Of a stretch of 32,000 bases of DNA, positions 3,538-20,911 are shown one piece after another. Under the pieces are notes generated by a model. The model made no database searches, was not told the origin of the DNA, and saw only the letters and a list, made by a program, of their open reading frames with translations. Within the stretch, counting starts at the first letter, position 1. Every line of letters begins with the position of its first letter. Where the stretch lies: contig OY970322.1 of assembly GCA_963716945.1 (NCBI GenBank), positions 120,001 to 152,000 of the forward strand. The letters run 5' to 3'. The DNA comes from Candidatus Saccharimonadota bacterium. Lineage in GTDB: Bacteria; Patescibacteriota; Saccharimonadia; Saccharimonadales; UBA4665. The position numbers were made by a program, and so were the translations under genes.

Positions 3538-5364
3538 ATGTGCGGAATAGTCGGTTATATCGGTAAAAAGTCCGGCGTGGAAGTCGTTCTGACGGGCCTT
3601 GAGGCGCTCGAGTACCGCGGTTACGACTCGGCCGGCATAGCCGTCGTCAACGAGAACGGCAACGAAGTCGTCAAGCAGGTCGGCCGCGTTACCGGCCTGA
3701 TAGAAACGGTCAGAGACCAGCACCTGGACGCCAAACTGGTAATCGGCCACACCCGCTGGGCCACCCATGGCACCCCGACCATCCGGAACGCCCACCCCCA
3801 GGTTAACAACGCCTCGACGATCTCGGTCGTCCACAACGGTATTATCGAGAACTTCGCCGAGCTGCGCGAGCGGCTTGAGGCCGAAGGCTACACCTTCGCC
3901 TCCGATACCGATACCGAAGTCGTACCTAATCTGATTGACTACTATGCCAAGCAGTTGTCCTCGTTCGAGGCGGCGTTTGAGGCGGCCTTGAACGATGTCC
4001 GGGGCGCATACGCCATCGCCGCCGTCACGGCCGATGAGCCCGGCACCTTGTACGCCGCCCGCCTGTCCAGCCCGCTGGTTATCGGCGTCGGCCAGGGCGA
4101 GCACATCCTGGCGTCCGATCCGGCGGCGATTATGAATCACACTAAAAAAGTTATTTACCTGGAAGATTACGACGTGGCGGTCATTACCGGCGACAAGGTC
4201 AAAATCCACAACCTCAAAGACGAAAAACGCCCCGCCCAGGAAGCCGAATTGCTGGATTACGATAACGAACAAGCCGTGCTCGGCGACTTCCCCAACTTCA
4301 TGCTCAAAGAGGTTTATGAGGCGCCGGCCACGATTAAGGCGGCCACCCTGGGACGTGTCCAGGCCGACAAGAGCCTGGTTAAGCTCGGCGGCCTGGAAAA
4401 CGTCCTCGGCGAACTCAAATATATAGACCGGATCGTCATCGTGGCTTGCGGCACGTCTTACTACGCCGGCCTGGTCGGCGAATACCTGATCGAGGAACTG
4501 GCCGGCATACCGGTCGAAGTCCAGCTGGCCAGCGAGTTCAAATACCGCAATGAGCCCTTCTCGCGCAGCACCGCCCTGCTGGCCATCTCGCAGTCCGGCG
4601 AAACGGCCGACACCATCGCCGCCCTTAAGAAGGTCGAGGATTACGGCGTCCTGCGGCTGGGTATCGTTAACTCCATCGGCAGCACCATCGCCCGCATGAC
4701 CGACGCCGGCGTTTATTGCCACGCCGGGCCCGAACAGGCGGTCGCCAGCACTAAGGCTTTCTTGGCCCAGGTAACGGTTTTGACCTTGATCGCCCTGCAC
4801 CTGAATAACGGCCAGAGCAAACGTTTCAAGCCGCTGCTCGAAGAACTCGACAGCCTGCCGGCCAAAGCCCAGGCGGTCCTGGATAACGCCGGCGAAATCA
4901 AGCGCATCGCCGAGAAATACGCCGGCTACCGCGACTTTCTTTACATCGGCCGCAACAACGCCTACCCGTCGGCTATGGAAGGCGCGCTGAAGTTAAAGGA
5001 AGTTTCTTACCTGCACGCCGAGGCCTACGCCGCCGGCGAGATGAAACACGGTCCGCTGGCCATGATCGACAAGGACTTCCCGACTTTCGTGATCGCTACC
5101 GATTCGCCGTTGCTCGAAAAGACCTACTCCAACATCCAGGAAATCCGCGCCCGCGGCGGCCCGGTCATCGCCTTGGCCACCAAGGGCAACAAAGACATAC
5201 AAAAGCTCTGTGACGACGTCATCTATATGCCGGCGACGGCCCTGGAAACACAGCCCATCCTTCACGCTATCATCACCCAGCTGTTCGCCTATTACATAGC
5301 CACGGCCCGCGGCTACGAAGTCGACCGGCCGCGCAACCTGGCCAAGTCGGTCACCGTCGAATAG
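3538..5364 (+). CDS. glmS: Glutamine--fructose-6-phosphate aminotransferase (isomerizing)
   Basis: 608 aa. The N-terminus MCGIVGYIG has the Cys2 of an Ntn amidotransferase. Two SIS-type halves follow, and the C-terminus ends ...RPRNLAKSVTVE. These are hallmark GlmS features. Confidence 0.97.
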   Translation: MCGIVGYIGKKSGVEVVLTGLEALEYRGYDSAGIAVVNENGNEVVKQVGRVTGLIETVRDQHLDAKLVIGHTRWATHGTPTIRNAHPQVNNASTISVVHNGIIENFAELRERLEAEGYTFASDTDTEVVPNLIDYYAKQLSSFEAAFEAALNDVRGAYAIAAVTADEPGTLYAARLSSPLVIGVGQGEHILASDPAAIMNHTKKVIYLEDYDVAVITGDKVKIHNLKDEKRPAQEAELLDYDNEQAVLGDFPNFMLKEVYEAPATIKAATLGRVQADKSLVKLGGLENVLGELKYIDRIVIVACGTSYYAGLVGEYLIEELAGIPVEVQLASEFKYRNEPFSRSTALLAISQSGETADTIAALKKVEDYGVLRLGIVNSIGSTIARMTDAGVYCHAGPEQAVASTKAFLAQVTVLTLIALHLNNGQSKRFKPLLEELDSLPAKAQAVLDNAGEIKRIAEKYAGYRDFLYIGRNNAYPSAMEGALKLKEVSYLHAEAYAAGEMKHGPLAMIDKDFPTFVIATDSPLLEKTYSNIQEIRARGGPVIALATKGNKDIQKLCDDVIYMPATALETQPILHAIITQLFAYYIATARGYEVDRPRNLAKSVTVE

Positions 5365-5368
5365 GCGC

Positions 5369-6145
5369 TTAGGCTTGTTTGAGAATGTCCCCGACAACGG
5401 CCGCGGTGTCCTGCCAGCGTGATATCTGCAGGCAGTCGATGCCCATGGCTTTGACCGGATAGTCGTTGCCGCCTTCTTGCATGCGGTCGCCGATGAAAAG
5501 TATGTCGGCCTGGTCGATCTTCAGTATTTCCATCAGCTTTTTCATGCCATAGGCCTTGTCGATACCGGGTTTGGTCACGTCAATCGAGGTCACGCCGCCG
5601 GTCCGGACTTCGAATTCGGGCAGCAGAGCGGCGATATAGTCGCGCAGTTCGGTTTTTTTCTTATTATCCGGGTCCCAGGCATCGCGGCGGCGGATGCCTT
5701 CGGCGCCCAGGGTCTCGACTATGTCCTGGCCGAGCGCCGAGAACGTCACCTGGCTGCCGCGGTCATCGATACAATCGCCGTAAACCTCGCCGCCGCGGTA
5801 GCCGAGGTCGTCGAAGCCTTTGTTCAGGGCGGCGGTAATTTTTTGCTTCTGCTCGTCGGTCAAATCTTCGGCGTAAACCTGCCGCCAGTTATGGGCCGCC
5901 GGATCGTAAACGTGGTAGCGCGTACCACAAGCCGGCATCAGGTGCAGCCGCCCAAGTTTGTCCGGGTCGGTCGTGAGGCCGGCCAGCAGCTGCTTGTCAA
6001 ACCGCTTGAAGCCGCCGCCGGAGATGACGCAGACCTGGAACTTGTCCAGCAAGCGGTCCAGCAGCCCGGCCATCCGGCCGTCAATCAGCGACCGGTTATC
6101 GGTCAGTGTCCGGTCGAGGTCGAAGGCTATGAGTTTTTTAGCCAA
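5369..6145 (-). CDS. HAD-IIB family hydrolase, resembling eukaryotic-type phosphomannomutase
   Basis: 258 aa. The motifs FDLDRTLT, ISGGG, SIDVTKPGIDKAYGM and GDRMQEGGNDYPV follow the HAD-IIB motif order. They resemble, as I recall it, the PMM pattern FDVDGTLT / GGSD / SFDVFPEGWDK / GGNDFE. Only 9 nt separate it from the manC stop, so co-transcription is likely. Confidence 0.6.
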   Translation of the reverse strand: MAKKLIAFDLDRTLTDNRSLIDGRMAGLLDRLLDKFQVCVISGGGFKRFDKQLLAGLTTDPDKLGRLHLMPACGTRYHVYDPAAHNWRQVYAEDLTDEQKQKITAALNKGFDDLGYRGGEVYGDCIDDRGSQVTFSALGQDIVETLGAEGIRRRDAWDPDNKKKTELRDYIAALLPEFEVRTGGVTSIDVTKPGIDKAYGMKKLMEILKIDQADILFIGDRMQEGGNDYPVKAMGIDCLQISRWQDTAAVVGDILKQA

Positions 6146-17897: not shown

Positions 17898-18018
17898 GGA
17901 GAGGTACCCAAGGGGCCGAAGGGGCCGGGTTGTCAACCCGGTAGGAGGCGTCTAGTGATTAGCTTCGTCAGCATCGCCAGGACGGCTCGCGAGGGTTCGA
18001 ATCCCTCTCTCTCCGCCA
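17898..18018 (+). tRNA. Class-II, tRNA-Ser-like tRNA with anticodon GUC (Asp) and an unusually long (~49-nt) variable region; CCA is encoded
   Basis: Parsed structure: GGAGAGG-UA-CCC-AAGGGGCCGAA-GGG-G-CCGGG-UUGUCAA-CCCGG-[49 nt]-GAGGG-UUCGAAU-CCCUC-UCUCUCC-G-CCA. The acceptor stem is 7 bp. U8, the GG in the D loop, the canonical T arm, G73 and C11-G24 all match bacterial tRNA-Ser architecture. The amino-acid identity is uncertain. Confidence 0.75.
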
Positions 18019-18089
18019 GAAGAACGGTCAGCCACGCATGCGGTCCGGCTTTAATATCAAGCATGCTCTAACGGAAAGGGGGATCCACC

Positions 18090-18209
18090 ATGCCAAAACC
18101 AAACACGCGTGTACGCGACTCTCGGACGGGACAGTTTGTTCCACGCCGCGAGGCCGTAAGACGTCCGAGCACTACGGAGACAGAAGTTATCCGTAGACGC
18201 AAAGGCTAA
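18090..18209 (+). CDS. Small basic protein, 39 aa (MPKPNTRVRDSRTGQFVPRREAVRRPSTTETEVIRRRKG), function unknown
   Basis: It is below the track length cut-off. A strong Shine-Dalgarno AAGGGGGA ends 7 nt before ATG 18090, and the stop is TAA 18207-18209. A series of hairpins follows, including a canonical intrinsic terminator. The composition is Arg-rich. Confidence 0.6.
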   Translation: MPKPNTRVRDSRTGQFVPRREAVRRPSTTETEVIRRRKG

Positions 18210-18222
18210 AAACTAGTGGCAT

Positions 18223-18291
18223 AGCGAGCGGCGCGACGAACCGCTCGCTGTCACAAACAAAAAAGCACCATTTTTTAAGTGGTGCTTTTTT
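18223..18291 (+). terminator. Tandem hairpins: a GC-rich stem-loop plus a canonical (bidirectional) rho-independent terminator
   Basis: Hairpin A pairs AGCGAGCGG (18223-18231) with CCGCTCGCT (18241-18249). Hairpin B pairs GCACCA (18265-18270) with TGGTGC (18280-18285). Hairpin B is flanked by A6 (18259-18264) and T6 (18286-18291). Confidence 0.8.
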
Positions 18292-18303
18292 GCGCTTCGT
18301 CAG

Positions 18304-18325
18304 CATTCGAACTTTCGTTCGAGTG
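18304..18325 (+). other. 9-bp hairpin with a UUUC tetraloop (CATTCGAAC-TTTC-GTTCGAGTG)
   Basis: Read directly. It begins inside the second copy of the 13-nt repeat GCTTCGTCAGCAT (18294-18306). Confidence 0.6.
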
Positions 18326-18348
18326 GCCGTAAATTAATACAGCCATTG

Positions 18349-18364
18349 CAATACTTCAGTATTG
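18349..18364. repeat. Palindrome CAATACT-tc-AGTATTG, a candidate operator
   Basis: It has perfect 7-bp arms. AGTACT (18366-18371), a GTATTA direct repeat and the palindrome ACGTA-T-TACGT follow within 40 bp. All lie in an AT-rich spacer. Confidence 0.5.
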
Positions 18365-18495
18365 GAGTACTACAATAGCAGTATTAACGTATTACGTCAA
18401 TAACCCCCTTCCTTTTAATGTCACTGGCCGGCCGATAGTTGAAAGCTATGCATTTTATTACTTTTAGAATACCTAGCCTGCTGGCAGATTGTCAA

Positions 18496-18668: not shown

Positions 18669-19253
18669 ATGGCTAGTAGCAGTACTAAAAACCGTTCCTT
18701 TATACATAGGCCGCTTTATCTGATTGTCGGCTTGCTGGTAATTGTCGGCGCCGGTTATTTAATTGCCCGTGCGACCTTCCTCAAATCGAAAACGCCGGCC
18801 GTGCCGCGGACGGCCAACTCTTATACCAAAGGCCAGCCGGCCGGTTCAAGCGGCAGCTCTTCTTCGGGCAACCAGTCGTCATCCGGCCAAAGCACCACTA
18901 GCGGCAGCCAGAAAGGCGGTTCCGGCGGCAGTTCGGCCGTCGTCATAACGCCTTCCGGCAACTTCGTCAGCGACCACCACCCCAACCTCAGCGGGTCGCC
19001 GGCGCCCAATACCCTGACGTCGGTTTGCAACACCACGCCCGGCGCGGCCTGCCAGATAAGTTTTACGATGGACGGCGTGACCAAATCGTTGCCGTCGCAA
19101 ACTACCGATTCGGGCGGCTCGACCTACTGGACTAACTGGAAGCTGCAGGATGTCGGCCTGACCGCCGGCACGTGGAAAGTGCAGGCTACGGCCAGCCTGG
19201 ACGGCCAAACCCAAACGGCTTATGACGCCATGGACCTGGTGGTATCACAATGA
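18669..19253 (+). CDS. Membrane-anchored/secreted protein with a Ser/Gly-rich linker and a small C-terminal beta-rich domain
   Basis: 194 aa. The N-terminal TM anchor is LYLIVGLLVIVGAGYLIA. A low-complexity stretch GQPAGSSGSSSSGNQSSSGQSTTSGSQKGGSGGSS follows, then a ~100-aa domain containing 2 Cys. Its stop overlaps the next start (ATGA 19250-19253). Confidence 0.7.
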   Translation: MASSSTKNRSFIHRPLYLIVGLLVIVGAGYLIARATFLKSKTPAVPRTANSYTKGQPAGSSGSSSSGNQSSSGQSTTSGSQKGGSGGSSAVVITPSGNFVSDHHPNLSGSPAPNTLTSVCNTTPGAACQISFTMDGVTKSLPSQTTDSGGSTYWTNWKLQDVGLTAGTWKVQATASLDGQTQTAYDAMDLVVSQ

Positions 19254-20911
19254 GATACCTGCAACGCTTAGCCTTAGCCCTCGTAACGGCCACGGTCGCC
19301 TTGTCGTCAATTGCCGGTATCGCCCACGCCGATTCCTTCAACTCCAGCCGGATAATGGACGACTCGGTTTTCGATAACACGAACAGCATGAACGCTTCCC
19401 AGATAGACAGCTGGCTCAACTCGATGTTCGGCAGCACCAGCTGTATCAGTACCGACCATGGTTTCAGCGCGCCCGACCCGACCGGTTATTCGCCGTCGGG
19501 CGGCTTCACTTTCGGTGCCAACGTGTCGGCCGGGCAGGTCATATATGATGCCTCTCAAGCCTACAGCATTAACCCCCAGGTCCTGTTGGCGACCTTGCAG
19601 AAAGAACAAAGCCTGGTCAGCGGCAGCGCCGGCTGCAGCACGCTGGCTTACGCCGCCGCGGCCGGTTACGGCTGTCCCGACAGCGGCGGCCAATACAGCT
19701 ACTCCGGCGTCGACCTTTACGCCATCAACGGCGGCACTGTCACGTCGGTCAGCGGCACCTGCGTTAACAGCTCGCTCAAGGTCGGCTTCTCGCAGCAGGT
19801 TATCCGGGCCGCCTGGCTGCTCAAATTCGGCGAGCAGCGGTCCGAGGGCAACGTCAACTGGGCCGTAATAAAAGGCAGCTGGGACAATTCTGACGATCCG
19901 CAAACCTGCTACGGCGGCCCGATGACCCAGGGTACTTTCCAGATTTGCCCGGGCGGCCCGGCGACTTATTACGACGGCTACACGACCATTGACGGCCAAT
20001 CGACCCACATGGACACCGGGCCGACGGCGGCGCTGTACTGGTACACGCCGCACTTCTCGGGCAACCAGAACTTCTGGACGATATTTACCAACTGGTTCGG
20101 CGGCACGGTTTCCAACAGCTACTCCAATACGCTCAACTTCGTCCGGCTGAATTACTACACCGGCAACATGCAGGTCATCGGCTATCCCTCGATTAACTCT
20201 TACGCCTTCAGCAACCGCAACACCACCGTACCGTACCCCACCGGCACTTCGATTATCCCGCTGTTCCGGCCGAACGGCGATTTGAGCTTCATAAACCTGA
20301 ACGATGCTTCGGGCAAAGTCAGGGTCACGACGTTCAGCGCGGCCAGCAATTTCCAGCAGCTGTCGAGCGATATCGACGTGCCATACCCGGCCGTGCCGAA
20401 CGACGGCGCGGTCGTGCCGTTATTCCGGCCGAACGGCGATTTGAGCTTCGTGCGGCTGAATTACTACACCGGCAACACGCAGGTCGTGACTTATAGTTAC
20501 GGCAGCTACTTCCAGCAGCTGTCGAGCATCATAACTACCGCTTATCCGGATGTGCCGACCAACGGTTCGGTCGTGCCGCTGTTTCGGCCGAACGGCGATT
20601 TAAGCTTCGTCAATATGAATTACTTTACCGGCCATGCCCAGGTAGTGACTTACGGTCTCAACGGTTACTTCCAGCAGCTGTCGAGCAATATAATTACGCC
20701 CTACCCGGCGGTCGCGCCCGGCAGCCCGGTCATGCCGATGTTCATGCCGGACGAAGACTTAAGCTTCGTCAATTCCGACTACTACGCCGGCAACGCCCAG
20801 ATCGTGACTTACAGTTACCCCTATTACTACCAGTTCATAAGCACCCAGTACCTGACCGGCTACCCGAGCGTCAGCGACTACACGAACGTCAAGAGCCTGG
20901 TCAGCCAGTAG
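19250..20911 (+). CDS. Secreted protein: conserved-looking N-terminal domain (possibly lysozyme/transglycosylase-like) plus five C-terminal ~53-aa repeats
   Basis: 553 aa. The signal peptide is MRYLQRLALALVTATVALSSIAGIAHA. The N-domain contains IMDDSVFDNTNSMNASQIDSWLNS and SAGQVIYDASQAYSINPQVLLATLQKEQSLVS, an E-x-S context reminiscent of lytic transglycosylase/lysozyme-like folds. The C-terminal half consists of tandem repeats of LSFVxLNYYTGNxQVVTY....FQQLSS.I...YP.VP..G.VVPLFRPNGD. Confidence 0.7.
   Translation: MRYLQRLALALVTATVALSSIAGIAHADSFNSSRIMDDSVFDNTNSMNASQIDSWLNSMFGSTSCISTDHGFSAPDPTGYSPSGGFTFGANVSAGQVIYDASQAYSINPQVLLATLQKEQSLVSGSAGCSTLAYAAAAGYGCPDSGGQYSYSGVDLYAINGGTVTSVSGTCVNSSLKVGFSQQVIRAAWLLKFGEQRSEGNVNWAVIKGSWDNSDDPQTCYGGPMTQGTFQICPGGPATYYDGYTTIDGQSTHMDTGPTAALYWYTPHFSGNQNFWTIFTNWFGGTVSNSYSNTLNFVRLNYYTGNMQVIGYPSINSYAFSNRNTTVPYPTGTSIIPLFRPNGDLSFINLNDASGKVRVTTFSAASNFQQLSSDIDVPYPAVPNDGAVVPLFRPNGDLSFVRLNYYTGNTQVVTYSYGSYFQQLSSIITTAYPDVPTNGSVVPLFRPNGDLSFVNMNYFTGHAQVVTYGLNGYFQQLSSNIITPYPAVAPGSPVMPMFMPDEDLSFVNSDYYAGNAQIVTYSYPYYYQFISTQYLTGYPSVSDYTNVKSLVSQ
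20132..20908 (+). repeat. Tandem coding repeat, 5 units, period 159 bp (the first unit is 150 bp)
   Basis: The codon for the conserved Phe of L-S/N-F-V recurs at 20138, 20288, 20447, 20606 and 20765. The core ccgctgttccggccgaacggcgatttgagcttc is nearly identical at 20258, 20417 and 20576. Confidence 0.85.

Follow-up and report, generated by a model that had tools for sequence, protein, structure and literature searches.

A 32,000-nucleotide stretch of a Candidatus Saccharimonadota contig (OY970322.1; hereafter the window, with positions counted from its first letter) was found to encode a transfer RNA (tRNA) or tRNA-like RNA of the serine type whose anticodon, GUC, belongs to aspartate codons. 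Comparison with related loci firmly supports the existence of a real, conserved family of such serine-type tRNA-like genes with non-serine anticodons. Also firmly supported, from the sequences compared, is the complementarity of the tip of the variable arm to a neighbouring small RNA that is predicted to be convergently encoded. In every full copy the gene forms part of a module of ~600 bp comprising the tRNA, a covarying hairpin, a small open reading frame (ORF), a bidirectional terminator and the convergent small-RNA gene. An earlier description made from the letters of the window (the sequence-only reading) had drawn attention to the tRNA itself; it did not include the repeat of the arm tip, termed X, within the small-RNA gene, nor the gene for a small basic protein that always lies 3′ of the tRNA. 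We propose, at roughly an even chance of being correct, that the gene encodes an antisense-controlled missense tRNA of the serine type. What we infer from sequence within this proposal is that both RNAs are transcribed and pair in vivo, that the tRNA is charged with serine and decodes, and that the module has a toxic or addictive role.

Read on the plus strand, positions 17898-18018 parse as GGAGAGG/UA/CCC-AAGGGGCCGAA-GGG/G/CCGGG-UUGUCAA-CCCGG/49 nt/GAGGG-UUCGAAU-CCCUC/UCUCUCC/G/CCA, exactly as the sequence-only reading had set out. This corresponds to a 7-bp acceptor stem, U8 and A9, a 3-bp D stem (CCC/GGG) with an 11-nt loop, a 5-bp anticodon stem bearing the loop UUGUCAA with GUC at 17932-17934, G73 at 18015 and an encoded CCA at 18016-18018. 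The serine-type scaffold recognised at that stage (class II, 3-bp D stem, G73, G1-C72, G2-C71, A3-U70 and C11-G24) was found as described, together with an anticodon that is not one for serine. The variable arm, previously estimated at 49 nt and ~17 bp, indeed comprises 49 nt and forms 16 bp. Its helix runs from G17945-C17988 to U17964-A17970, is interrupted by internal loops and closes with the apical hairpin GCU-UCGUC-AGC, whose loop UCGUC had been correctly identified; the arm exceeds twice the usual class II length.

The Rfam tRNA model (RF00005) aligned to 17898-18015 across its entire length (model positions 1-71 of 71), scoring 48.9 bits where the gathering score is 29 (E = 1e-7) and handling 46 nt of the variable region as an insertion. 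The minimum-free-energy fold of the 121 nt has an energy of -54.9 kcal/mol (z = -2.7), which none of 200 shuffles equalled; the acceptor, anticodon, variable and T arms form in this fold and the canonical D arm does not. ARAGORN at its default settings called no tRNA in the whole window and none in any family member. The covariance model, rejection by which the sequence-only reading would have counted against a tRNA, accepts the gene. In its relaxed mode (-ps80) ARAGORN returned junk calls, some of which took the arm tip for an anticodon loop. The failure probably stems from an arm length beyond the limits of the program and, since ARAGORN is blind to the gene, routine annotation would skip it. 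Neither ARAGORN nor Rfam called a transfer-messenger RNA (tmRNA); the internal tag reading frame that marks a tmRNA is lacking here, as the small ORF lies 3′ of the CCA with its own Shine-Dalgarno sequence and start codon.

Table 1 Features of the tRNA-small RNA module in the window
Feature	Position	Strand	Description
Candidate tRNA/small-ORF promoter	17711..17739	+	TTGACA, 17 nt, GATAAT; 11/12 consensus matches
Serine-type class II tRNA(-like) gene	17898..18018	+	121 nt; Rfam RF00005, fold, family covariance model R1
Variable arm	17942..17990	+	49 nt, 16 bp, four helical segments (3+5+5+3), minimum-free-energy fold
X1	17962..17974	+	13-nt GCTTCGTCAGCAT at variable-arm tip; proposed antisense target
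Spacer hairpin	18036..18066	+	GCATGC...GCATGC stem, ~19-nt loop; within the 71-nt tRNA-ORF spacer
Shine-Dalgarno GGAAAGGGGG	18073-18082	+	3′ of spacer hairpin
Small ORF	18090..18209	+	39 amino acids, very basic: MPKPNTRVRDSRTGQFVPRREAVRRPSTTETEVIRRRKG
Predicted antisense small RNA	18257..18365	-	~108 nt; start inferred from promoter (+/-3 nt)
Bidirectional intrinsic terminator	18258..18292	.	Inverted repeat I1, 16-nt arms, A-run before, T-run after
X2 / anti-X	18294..18306	-	Minus-strand transcript AUGCUGACGAAGC, perfect complement of X1, small hairpin
Small-RNA promoter	18372..18400	-	Sigma-70-type: TTGACG, 17 nt, (TGC)TATTGT

Homologues were sought by scanning metagenomes for an anticodon loop and a T loop at class II spacing. 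Among the 45 stretches recovered, one (L156) proved to be a true homologue, with the same small ORF directly 3′ of its tRNA. Further copies were reached with the protein of 39-46 amino acids encoded by this ORF as the query, followed by a lookup of the encoding contigs. Eight distinct full copies were obtained, all from metagenomic assemblies and two of them on contigs of 1.10 and 1.18 Mb: those of the window, L156, L176, L177, L178, L181, L290 and L291. The related loci share the odd architecture of the window gene; an ordinary tRNA-Ser at this position, by which the sequence-only reading would have recognised a decayed copy or an assembly error, was not encountered there. A scan of the genome collection for the pattern of arm loop and T loop gave only eight matches, attributable to chance or to tmRNA. 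Three scans of the viral collection and a covariance-model search of ~190 retrieved loci yielded no family member, and BLAST of the module against phage and plasmid records matched only the 3′ ends of tRNA-Ser genes. RF00005 scored L156, L176, L181 and L290 at 49.8-52.1 bits; L177, L178 and L291 fell below its gathering score, as did two reduced relatives, L175 and L185, described below. With a covariance model of the family itself, members scored 112-128 bits (126.8 for the window), and ordinary class II tRNAs came next at 74 bits or less.

The alignment of the eight sequences revealed extensive covariation. Paired cells amount to 96.2%, compared with 79.3% in shuffles and ~50% with slid partners, and 16 of the 30 tRNA pairs show compensatory change, a count attained in none of 500 shuffles. 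The acceptor, D, anticodon, variable and T helices are kept throughout. Compensatory changes in the long arm, which the sequence-only reading had suggested looking for, are present, the outer variable-arm helices covarying across the eight homologues; six of the seven pairs of helix 5 have changed on both sides. The common geometry consists of a 7-bp acceptor stem, a 5-bp T stem, a 3-bp D stem, a D loop of 11-12 nt and a variable arm of 42-52 nt. G73, the encoded CCA, G1-C72, G2-C71, A3-U70 and G4-C69 are invariant in all eight, as are U8, A14 and G15/C48. G18 G19 is found in seven copies, L291 having A19, and C11-G24 likewise in seven, L291 having U11-A24 with pairing preserved. In L291 (2809-2930) the tertiary pair G19:C56 has been swapped in concert to A19:U56, which is sensible only for an L-shaped tRNA fold.

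The 13 nt at the arm tip of the window gene recur as an exact direct repeat downstream (X1 and X2). X takes the form GC-N6-AGCAT, and X2 directly follows the terminator of the small ORF. In seven of the eight loci the repeat is exact over 13-14 nt, and in L290 it comprises 10 nt plus one mismatch; the spacing of the two copies is 313-349 nt in the four loci measured. Five middle hexamers occur, each matched by the downstream copy of its own locus: TTCGTC (window, L156, L181), TTTCAG (L290), CTCTAC (L176, L178), CTGATT (L177) and CTTGTC (L291). Since the downstream repeat is read on the opposite strand and both copies change together, a small RNA complementary to the arm tip is predicted. A minus-strand promoter is present in all eight loci, with TTGACN or TTTACA, a spacer of exactly 17 nt and the extended -10 element TGC-TAnnnT. 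The predicted small RNA, of ~110 nt in the family, possesses the same five hairpins in seven of seven sequences (three hairpins, the anti-X hairpin and the terminator), with 97% of cells paired and compensatory change in 11 of 30 pairs, again attained by none of 500 shuffles. Several of its G.U pairs would turn into A.C mismatches if the other strand were read, an argument for the minus strand as the functional one. Rfam at a permissive threshold contained no family for the small RNA or for the tRNA-ORF spacer.

Duplex energies were computed on 22-nt windows around X and anti-X; a full-length RNAduplex matrix was discarded, being blind to intramolecular folding. Cognate X/anti-X duplexes ranged from -19 to -28 kcal/mol (-25.4 kcal/mol for the window) and those across specificity groups from -7 to -18. 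The simplest reading of these alignments would be a loop-loop antisense pair formed by the tRNA arm tip and the predicted small RNA. A second conserved repeat shared by transcript and small RNA was sought and was present in L156 only. There, a second exact 12-nt direct repeat (AACACACCTCAC; 1221-1232 and 1661-1672) is shared by the leader just 5′ of the tRNA and the predicted small RNA, where it falls in the 5′ hairpin. No complement of the anticodon loop was seen by eye in the small-RNA sequences of the window and L176.

The anticodon differs between members of the family. GUC is carried in the loop UUGUCAA by the window and L156, GAA in CUGAAGA by L176, L177 and L181 and in CCGAAGA by L178, CCA in CUCCAAA by L290, and GCG in UUGCGGA by L291. 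The loop always has 7 nt, with Y32-U33 (one C33) and R37-A38. CUGAAGA is identical across three loci whose stems carry compensatory substitutions; being constant while the stems covary, the loop looks selected within subgroups. The body, by comparison, is of the serine type in its class II build, 3-bp D stem, enlarged D loop, long arm, G73, acceptor determinants and C11-G24, the last known as a tRNA-Ser determinant from studies in E. coli. The 3′ 29 nt of the window gene, from the base before the T stem to the CCA, recur without change in phage records, at 3′ ends annotated as tRNA-Ser, and in plasmid records, at sites that bear no annotation. A permissive Rfam match to Plastid-psbI-rps4 likewise reflects a tRNA-Ser-like T arm, near plastid tRNA-Ser. 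Serine identity depends on the long arm and on G73, which the acceptor stem reinforces, and does not rely on the anticodon (PMC9976931); long arm, G73 and acceptor-stem elements are all present in the family.

GUC, G73 and G2-C71 are, on the other hand, aspartate determinants in E. coli (PMC9976931), a combination that was assessed for the window copy and is present there. Together with the lack of any ARAGORN tRNA call elsewhere in the 32-kb window, they would speak for the organism's own or a spare tRNA-Asp that had acquired a long arm and was charged by aspartyl-tRNA synthetase (AspRS). This explanation, raised earlier as an aberrant tRNA-Asp, we consider very unlikely. The same body is combined with GAA, CCA and GCG in homologues within the same module; tRNA-Ser is also what the D arm, the discriminator context and the 3′ half resemble; and a class II arm, here one of 49 nt, is not known from tRNA-Asp, whose variable loop is of class I (4-5 nt). 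C10 and A38, moreover, lie outside E. coli aspartate identity (G10 and C38), as the sequence-only reading had pointed out.

Recoding of aspartate codons was also examined. GAC and GAT together account for 434 of the 7,232 codons (6%) in the main ORFs of the window. All 22 aspartates of RmlA are encoded by GAC or GAT, among them those of conserved motifs (GDN, WLDTGT and PDG) in an alignment with PDB 4ho0. As GAY still encodes conserved catalytic aspartate residues of RmlA, reassignment of these codons is excluded. Of the earlier suggestion of an Asp-to-Ser recoding tRNA comparable to the allo-tRNAs, the analogy thus stands, in serine identity and assorted anticodons, and the recoding does not. 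A link between the anticodon and the codons of the small ORF was considered and rejected, as L290 has the anticodon CCA but no Trp codon in its ORF.

Beyond the CCA, the spacer separating tRNA and ORF measures 66-74 nt across the family. Its stem varies in sequence yet stays paired (GCAUGC/GCAUGC, CGCAC/GUGCG, GCAUAUG/CAUAUGC, UGCGUAC/GUACGCA) and, as no T-run follows, the hairpin is not a terminator; a good Shine-Dalgarno sequence comes after it. With no terminator between tRNA and ORF, co-transcription of the two is likely. The bidirectional terminator downstream of the ORF is conserved in all full modules and is the predicted end of both transcripts. The candidate plus-strand promoter, ~150 nt upstream of the tRNA, can tentatively be assigned as the source of the tRNA/small-ORF transcript. 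Its -35 box lies within TTGACAA (17711-17717), the exact complement of the anticodon loop UUGUCAA; the match is probably a coincidence, because a -35 box would not be transcribed.

The small protein has 39-46 residues in the family, and the window product is hydrophilic with a net charge of about +8. A core motif, T-x-V-R-D-S-x-T-G-R-F-V-P ... P-x-T-T-E-T-E-V, was recognised. Homologues (P0006-P0058) were numerous, with 434 cluster representatives at E <= 0.001, many of them tandem duplications; a domain of ~35 amino acids is duplicated in tandem in many matches of 70-90 amino acids. The protein matched no Pfam or PHROG family, and no structural match was found in the PDB. AlphaFold2 predicted a small beta/alpha fold with a predicted local distance difference test score (pLDDT) of 78. 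The domain is occasionally fused, to a Cro/C1-type helix-turn-helix in P0146 and to a Tad2-like (Thoeris anti-defence) domain in P0166, and the gene adjoins those for ImmA/IrrE M78 peptidases in L185 and L187-L190. These fusions and neighbours hint at a role for the small protein in mobile elements or phages.

In the mechanism that we favour, an L-shaped RNA derived from tRNA-Ser would carry a non-serine anticodon that varies within the family, and the over-long variable arm would act as a display stalk for X. The arm tip and the small RNA would meet by loop-loop kissing and extend to a 13-bp duplex, with the fully complementary terminator stems offering a second contact. Pairing would sequester the tRNA (or a tRNA-mRNA precursor), unfold it or mark it for cleavage. 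Free tRNA would be expected to be charged with serine, because seryl-tRNA synthetase (SerRS) ignores the anticodon, and serine would then be inserted at Asp codons here and at Phe, Trp or Arg codons in the relatives. The whole would amount to an RNA-controlled missense tRNA in the layout of a par/Fst-type addiction module, often situated near integrases, serine recombinases and IS1595 transposases. Such control is physically plausible, since tRNAs engineered to carry a foreign hairpin at the variable-arm tip retain translational activity, and the hairpin allows their sequestration (PMC7590224). A bolder version, which appears rather unlikely to us on present sequence comparisons, would make the tRNA itself the harmful part of an all-RNA addiction or defence module, a labile small RNA keeping the stable, serine-charged tRNA inert. 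Were this so, the tRNA would be set free when the element is lost or host transcription is shut off, with proteome-wide mistranslation as the result. We know of no tRNA that serves as a toxin.

Several observations weigh against an antisense-controlled missense tRNA. Serine anticodons (NGA or GCU) occur in none of the eight copies, an absence that is not statistically meaningful given too few independent states, and AspRS could also recognise the window copy through GUC and G73. The T stem of both L177 and L178 contains a G.G mismatch, the T loop of L177 reads UCCGAAU and L178 has C33; these deviations suggest relaxed decoding constraints. The antisense target lies ~130 nt 5′ of the start codon, and not over the start codon as in par/Fst, and the small protein, being hydrophilic and basic, is unlike type I toxins. 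Distant small-protein homologues (L187-L193) have no tRNA-like gene upstream, so that the protein is not intrinsically tied to the module. Furthermore, a sister group (L175, 9841-9926; L185, 3846-3931) possesses a reduced, 86-nt tRNA-like gene 5′ of the same small ORF. This gene retains acceptor and T arms along with G73, CCA and a CCU/AGG D arm; nucleotides 8-9 are absent, the anticodon-like loops CUGAAAA (L175) and CUGAUAA (L185) sit on weak stems, the variable arm is a normal one of 16 nt with a GCAA tetraloop, and a strong promoter stands directly at the 5′ end. No X repeat was found downstream of it in either locus. A sister group with a normal arm and no X implies that the link between tRNA and ORF is older than the long arm and antisense control, and this link may serve a non-decoding purpose, for instance in processing or stability. 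The long arm, X and the antisense RNA gene co-occur in all eight full modules.

In the alternative that most needs weighing, the small-protein mRNA would begin with a cis element that does not decode, whose anticodon is irrelevant and whose transcript the antisense RNA regulates; the element could be a processing handle for RNase P/RNase Z, a stabiliser or a protein-binding platform. We regard it as possible, short of probable. Such a leader would fit the conserved tRNA-ORF spacing and spacer hairpin with no intervening terminator, the variation of the anticodon among homologous loci and the decay of the T arm in L177 and L178, as well as the retention of acceptor and T arms, G73 and CCA in L175 and L185 despite a weak anticodon stem, the lost nucleotides 8-9 and the lack of X. 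It fits poorly, however, with a canonical anticodon loop (7 nt, U33, R37) that is constant within subgroups while its stem covaries, and with the upkeep, in one case through compensatory change, of tertiary pairs needed only for the L-shape. The serine-type D loop, C11-G24 and G73 would be needless for a processing handle, and the antisense target is distant from the ribosome-binding site.

Two further explanations draw on the genomic surroundings. The X copies might be att-like recombination sites, or scars, of a mobile element in a tRNA gene that is now a decaying pseudogene, with no RNA-RNA function involved: tRNA genes are common integration sites, the direct repeats bound a segment of ~330 bp, and recombinases or transposases lie near five examined loci. 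A large serine recombinase gene overlaps tRNA-Met in L290 (1.3 kb from the module) and tRNA-Gly in L175 (5 kb), a tyrosine integrase lies 3 kb off in L178, and IS1595 transposases adjoin L181 and L291. We doubt this explanation strongly. The recombinases of L290 and L175 overlap tRNA genes other than that of the module; between the repeats, all eight loci have the same segment, which contains no recombinase and whose excision would destroy the tRNA. X2 is always placed between a conserved hairpin and the terminator of an opposite-strand unit with a conserved promoter, both copies of X reside in hairpin loops, and the tRNA is under purifying selection rather than decaying. The window module itself lies inside a rhamnose/polysaccharide (cell-envelope) biosynthesis cluster with no recombinase within the window. 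This location, and the conserved serine-type identity elements, would suit a serine-charged tRNA with a non-ribosomal use, as an aminoacyl donor in cell-envelope or natural-product synthesis, whose anticodon was free to drift. Other members occur in unrelated contexts, though, no gene for a Fem-type or other aminoacyl-tRNA transferase was noticed in the vicinity, and the anticodon loop is conserved within subgroups and not drifting; we give this possibility very little weight.

Conceptually, the allo-tRNAs come closest among tRNAs. They are defined by acceptor and T stems divided 8/4 or 9/3 and by a long D stem that ends in a tetraloop (Mukai et al. 2017, Nucleic Acids Res 45:2776; PMC5389517). 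They are mostly metagenomic, are often found beside toxin-antitoxin or transposon genes, and have been proposed to be missense or nonsense suppressors and/or regulatory RNAs (PMC5389517). The module family resembles them in its serine identity features (a long arm and G73 or U73 in allo-tRNAs) and in its assorted non-serine anticodons. It differs in its 7/5 geometry, 3-bp D stem and D loop of 11-12 nt, and reports of allo-tRNAs include none with an arm of 42-52 nt, with a matching antisense RNA or with a small ORF linked to it. As the 8/4 or 9/3 geometry is absent, the module family does not belong to the allo-tRNAs. Compared with ordinary tRNA-Ser, the acceptor stem, G73, class II D arm and T arm (with the identical 3′ 29 nt) are shared; the non-serine anticodon, an arm of 42-52 nt against ~13-23 nt and the three-gene module are not.

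The arrangement of the module recalls par/Fst. In the pAD1 RNA I/RNA II pair, convergent promoters and a shared bidirectional terminator are combined with direct repeats that are read oppositely and lend both transcripts dispersed complementarity, pairing initiates by loop-loop contact, and the interaction sequences diverge between homologous loci, conferring specificity (PMC7472228). An oppositely read direct repeat and locus-specific interaction sequences are likewise features of the module. Its layout also suggests convergent units that would share a bidirectional terminator: the terminator is present and the small-RNA promoter occurs in all eight loci, whereas the promoter of the tRNA and ORF is tentative. 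The module has a single repeat, placed in the variable arm of a tRNA, where par has two over the start codon and Shine-Dalgarno sequence. Its peptide is hydrophilic and basic instead of an Fst/Ldr membrane peptide, and its regulator has ~110 nt and five hairpins compared with ~40 nt in par. If the tRNA were harmful, the module would also resemble the type VIII system CreTA (PMC10097628, PMC9458426, PMC10767807), in that both partners would be RNA and the target translation; CreA, however, acts through a CRISPR effector on creT transcription, whereas direct antisense pairing is proposed here. Engineered aptamer-tagged tRNAs (Mukai 2020; PMC7590224) share a foreign hairpin at the tip of the long arm and sequestration by a high-affinity binding partner, and differ in being synthetic, in having protein partners and in using a 9/3 allo-tRNA chassis; in these constructs, bulges in the arm stem block SerRS (PMC7590224). 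A literature search found no description of the module, nor of an antisense RNA paired with a tRNA variable arm; searches for the accessions likewise returned nothing.

Natural missense tRNAs are rare in bacteria, and the present family suggests one way in which cells might tolerate them, an RNA switch built into the tRNA itself. If the proposed pairing holds, this would be the first natural tRNA variable arm to serve as a docking site for a regulatory RNA, a design at which synthetic biology has independently arrived with its aptamer-tagged tRNAs, and the logic of RNA-only toxin-antitoxin systems would be extended to tRNAs. The five natural X/anti-X variants, with several anticodons, might be exploited as ready-made orthogonal pairs. 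As ARAGORN misses every family member, the family also exposes a blind spot of annotation.

Elsewhere in the window, G+C content falls from ~0.58 to 0.48-0.53 between 23000 and 30000, over glycosyltransferase genes (WbsX/RgpF, GT2), which suggests that this block is a horizontally acquired part of the polysaccharide cluster. Two overlapping plus-strand ORFs (18669-19253 and 19250-20911) encode apparently secreted proteins of no assigned family. The 553-residue product contains ~4 repeats of a motif like VPLFRPNGDLSFV-x-LNYYTGN-x-QVVTY; its match to the OB-fold 'tRNA_anti-codon' domain (24.7 bits, below the cut-off of 27) is probably spurious.

Among the other contigs, L175 harbours a LOOT RNA (RF03000, 72 bits; 5989-6097, minus strand), which separates the tRNA-Gly-overlapping serine recombinase gene from the tRNA-like module. 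On L154 (Ga0209329_1000036; 4410-4515, minus strand) we found an unrelated, class-II-shaped tRNA with the anticodon GUC, a variable region of 34 nt, A73 and no encoded CCA. It scores 56.7 bits with the Rfam tRNA model, is missed by ARAGORN and makes a second case, independent of the first, of a long-armed tRNA bearing an Asp anticodon. Phage contigs additionally contain tRNA-like genes of 110-140 nt, unrelated to the family, with insertions of 40-60 nt between the anticodon region and the T arm (L046, 4862-4983 and 5076-5204; L108, 3659-3943; L083, 9903-10042, minus strand; L007, 3783-3911, minus strand; L047, 7451-7582).

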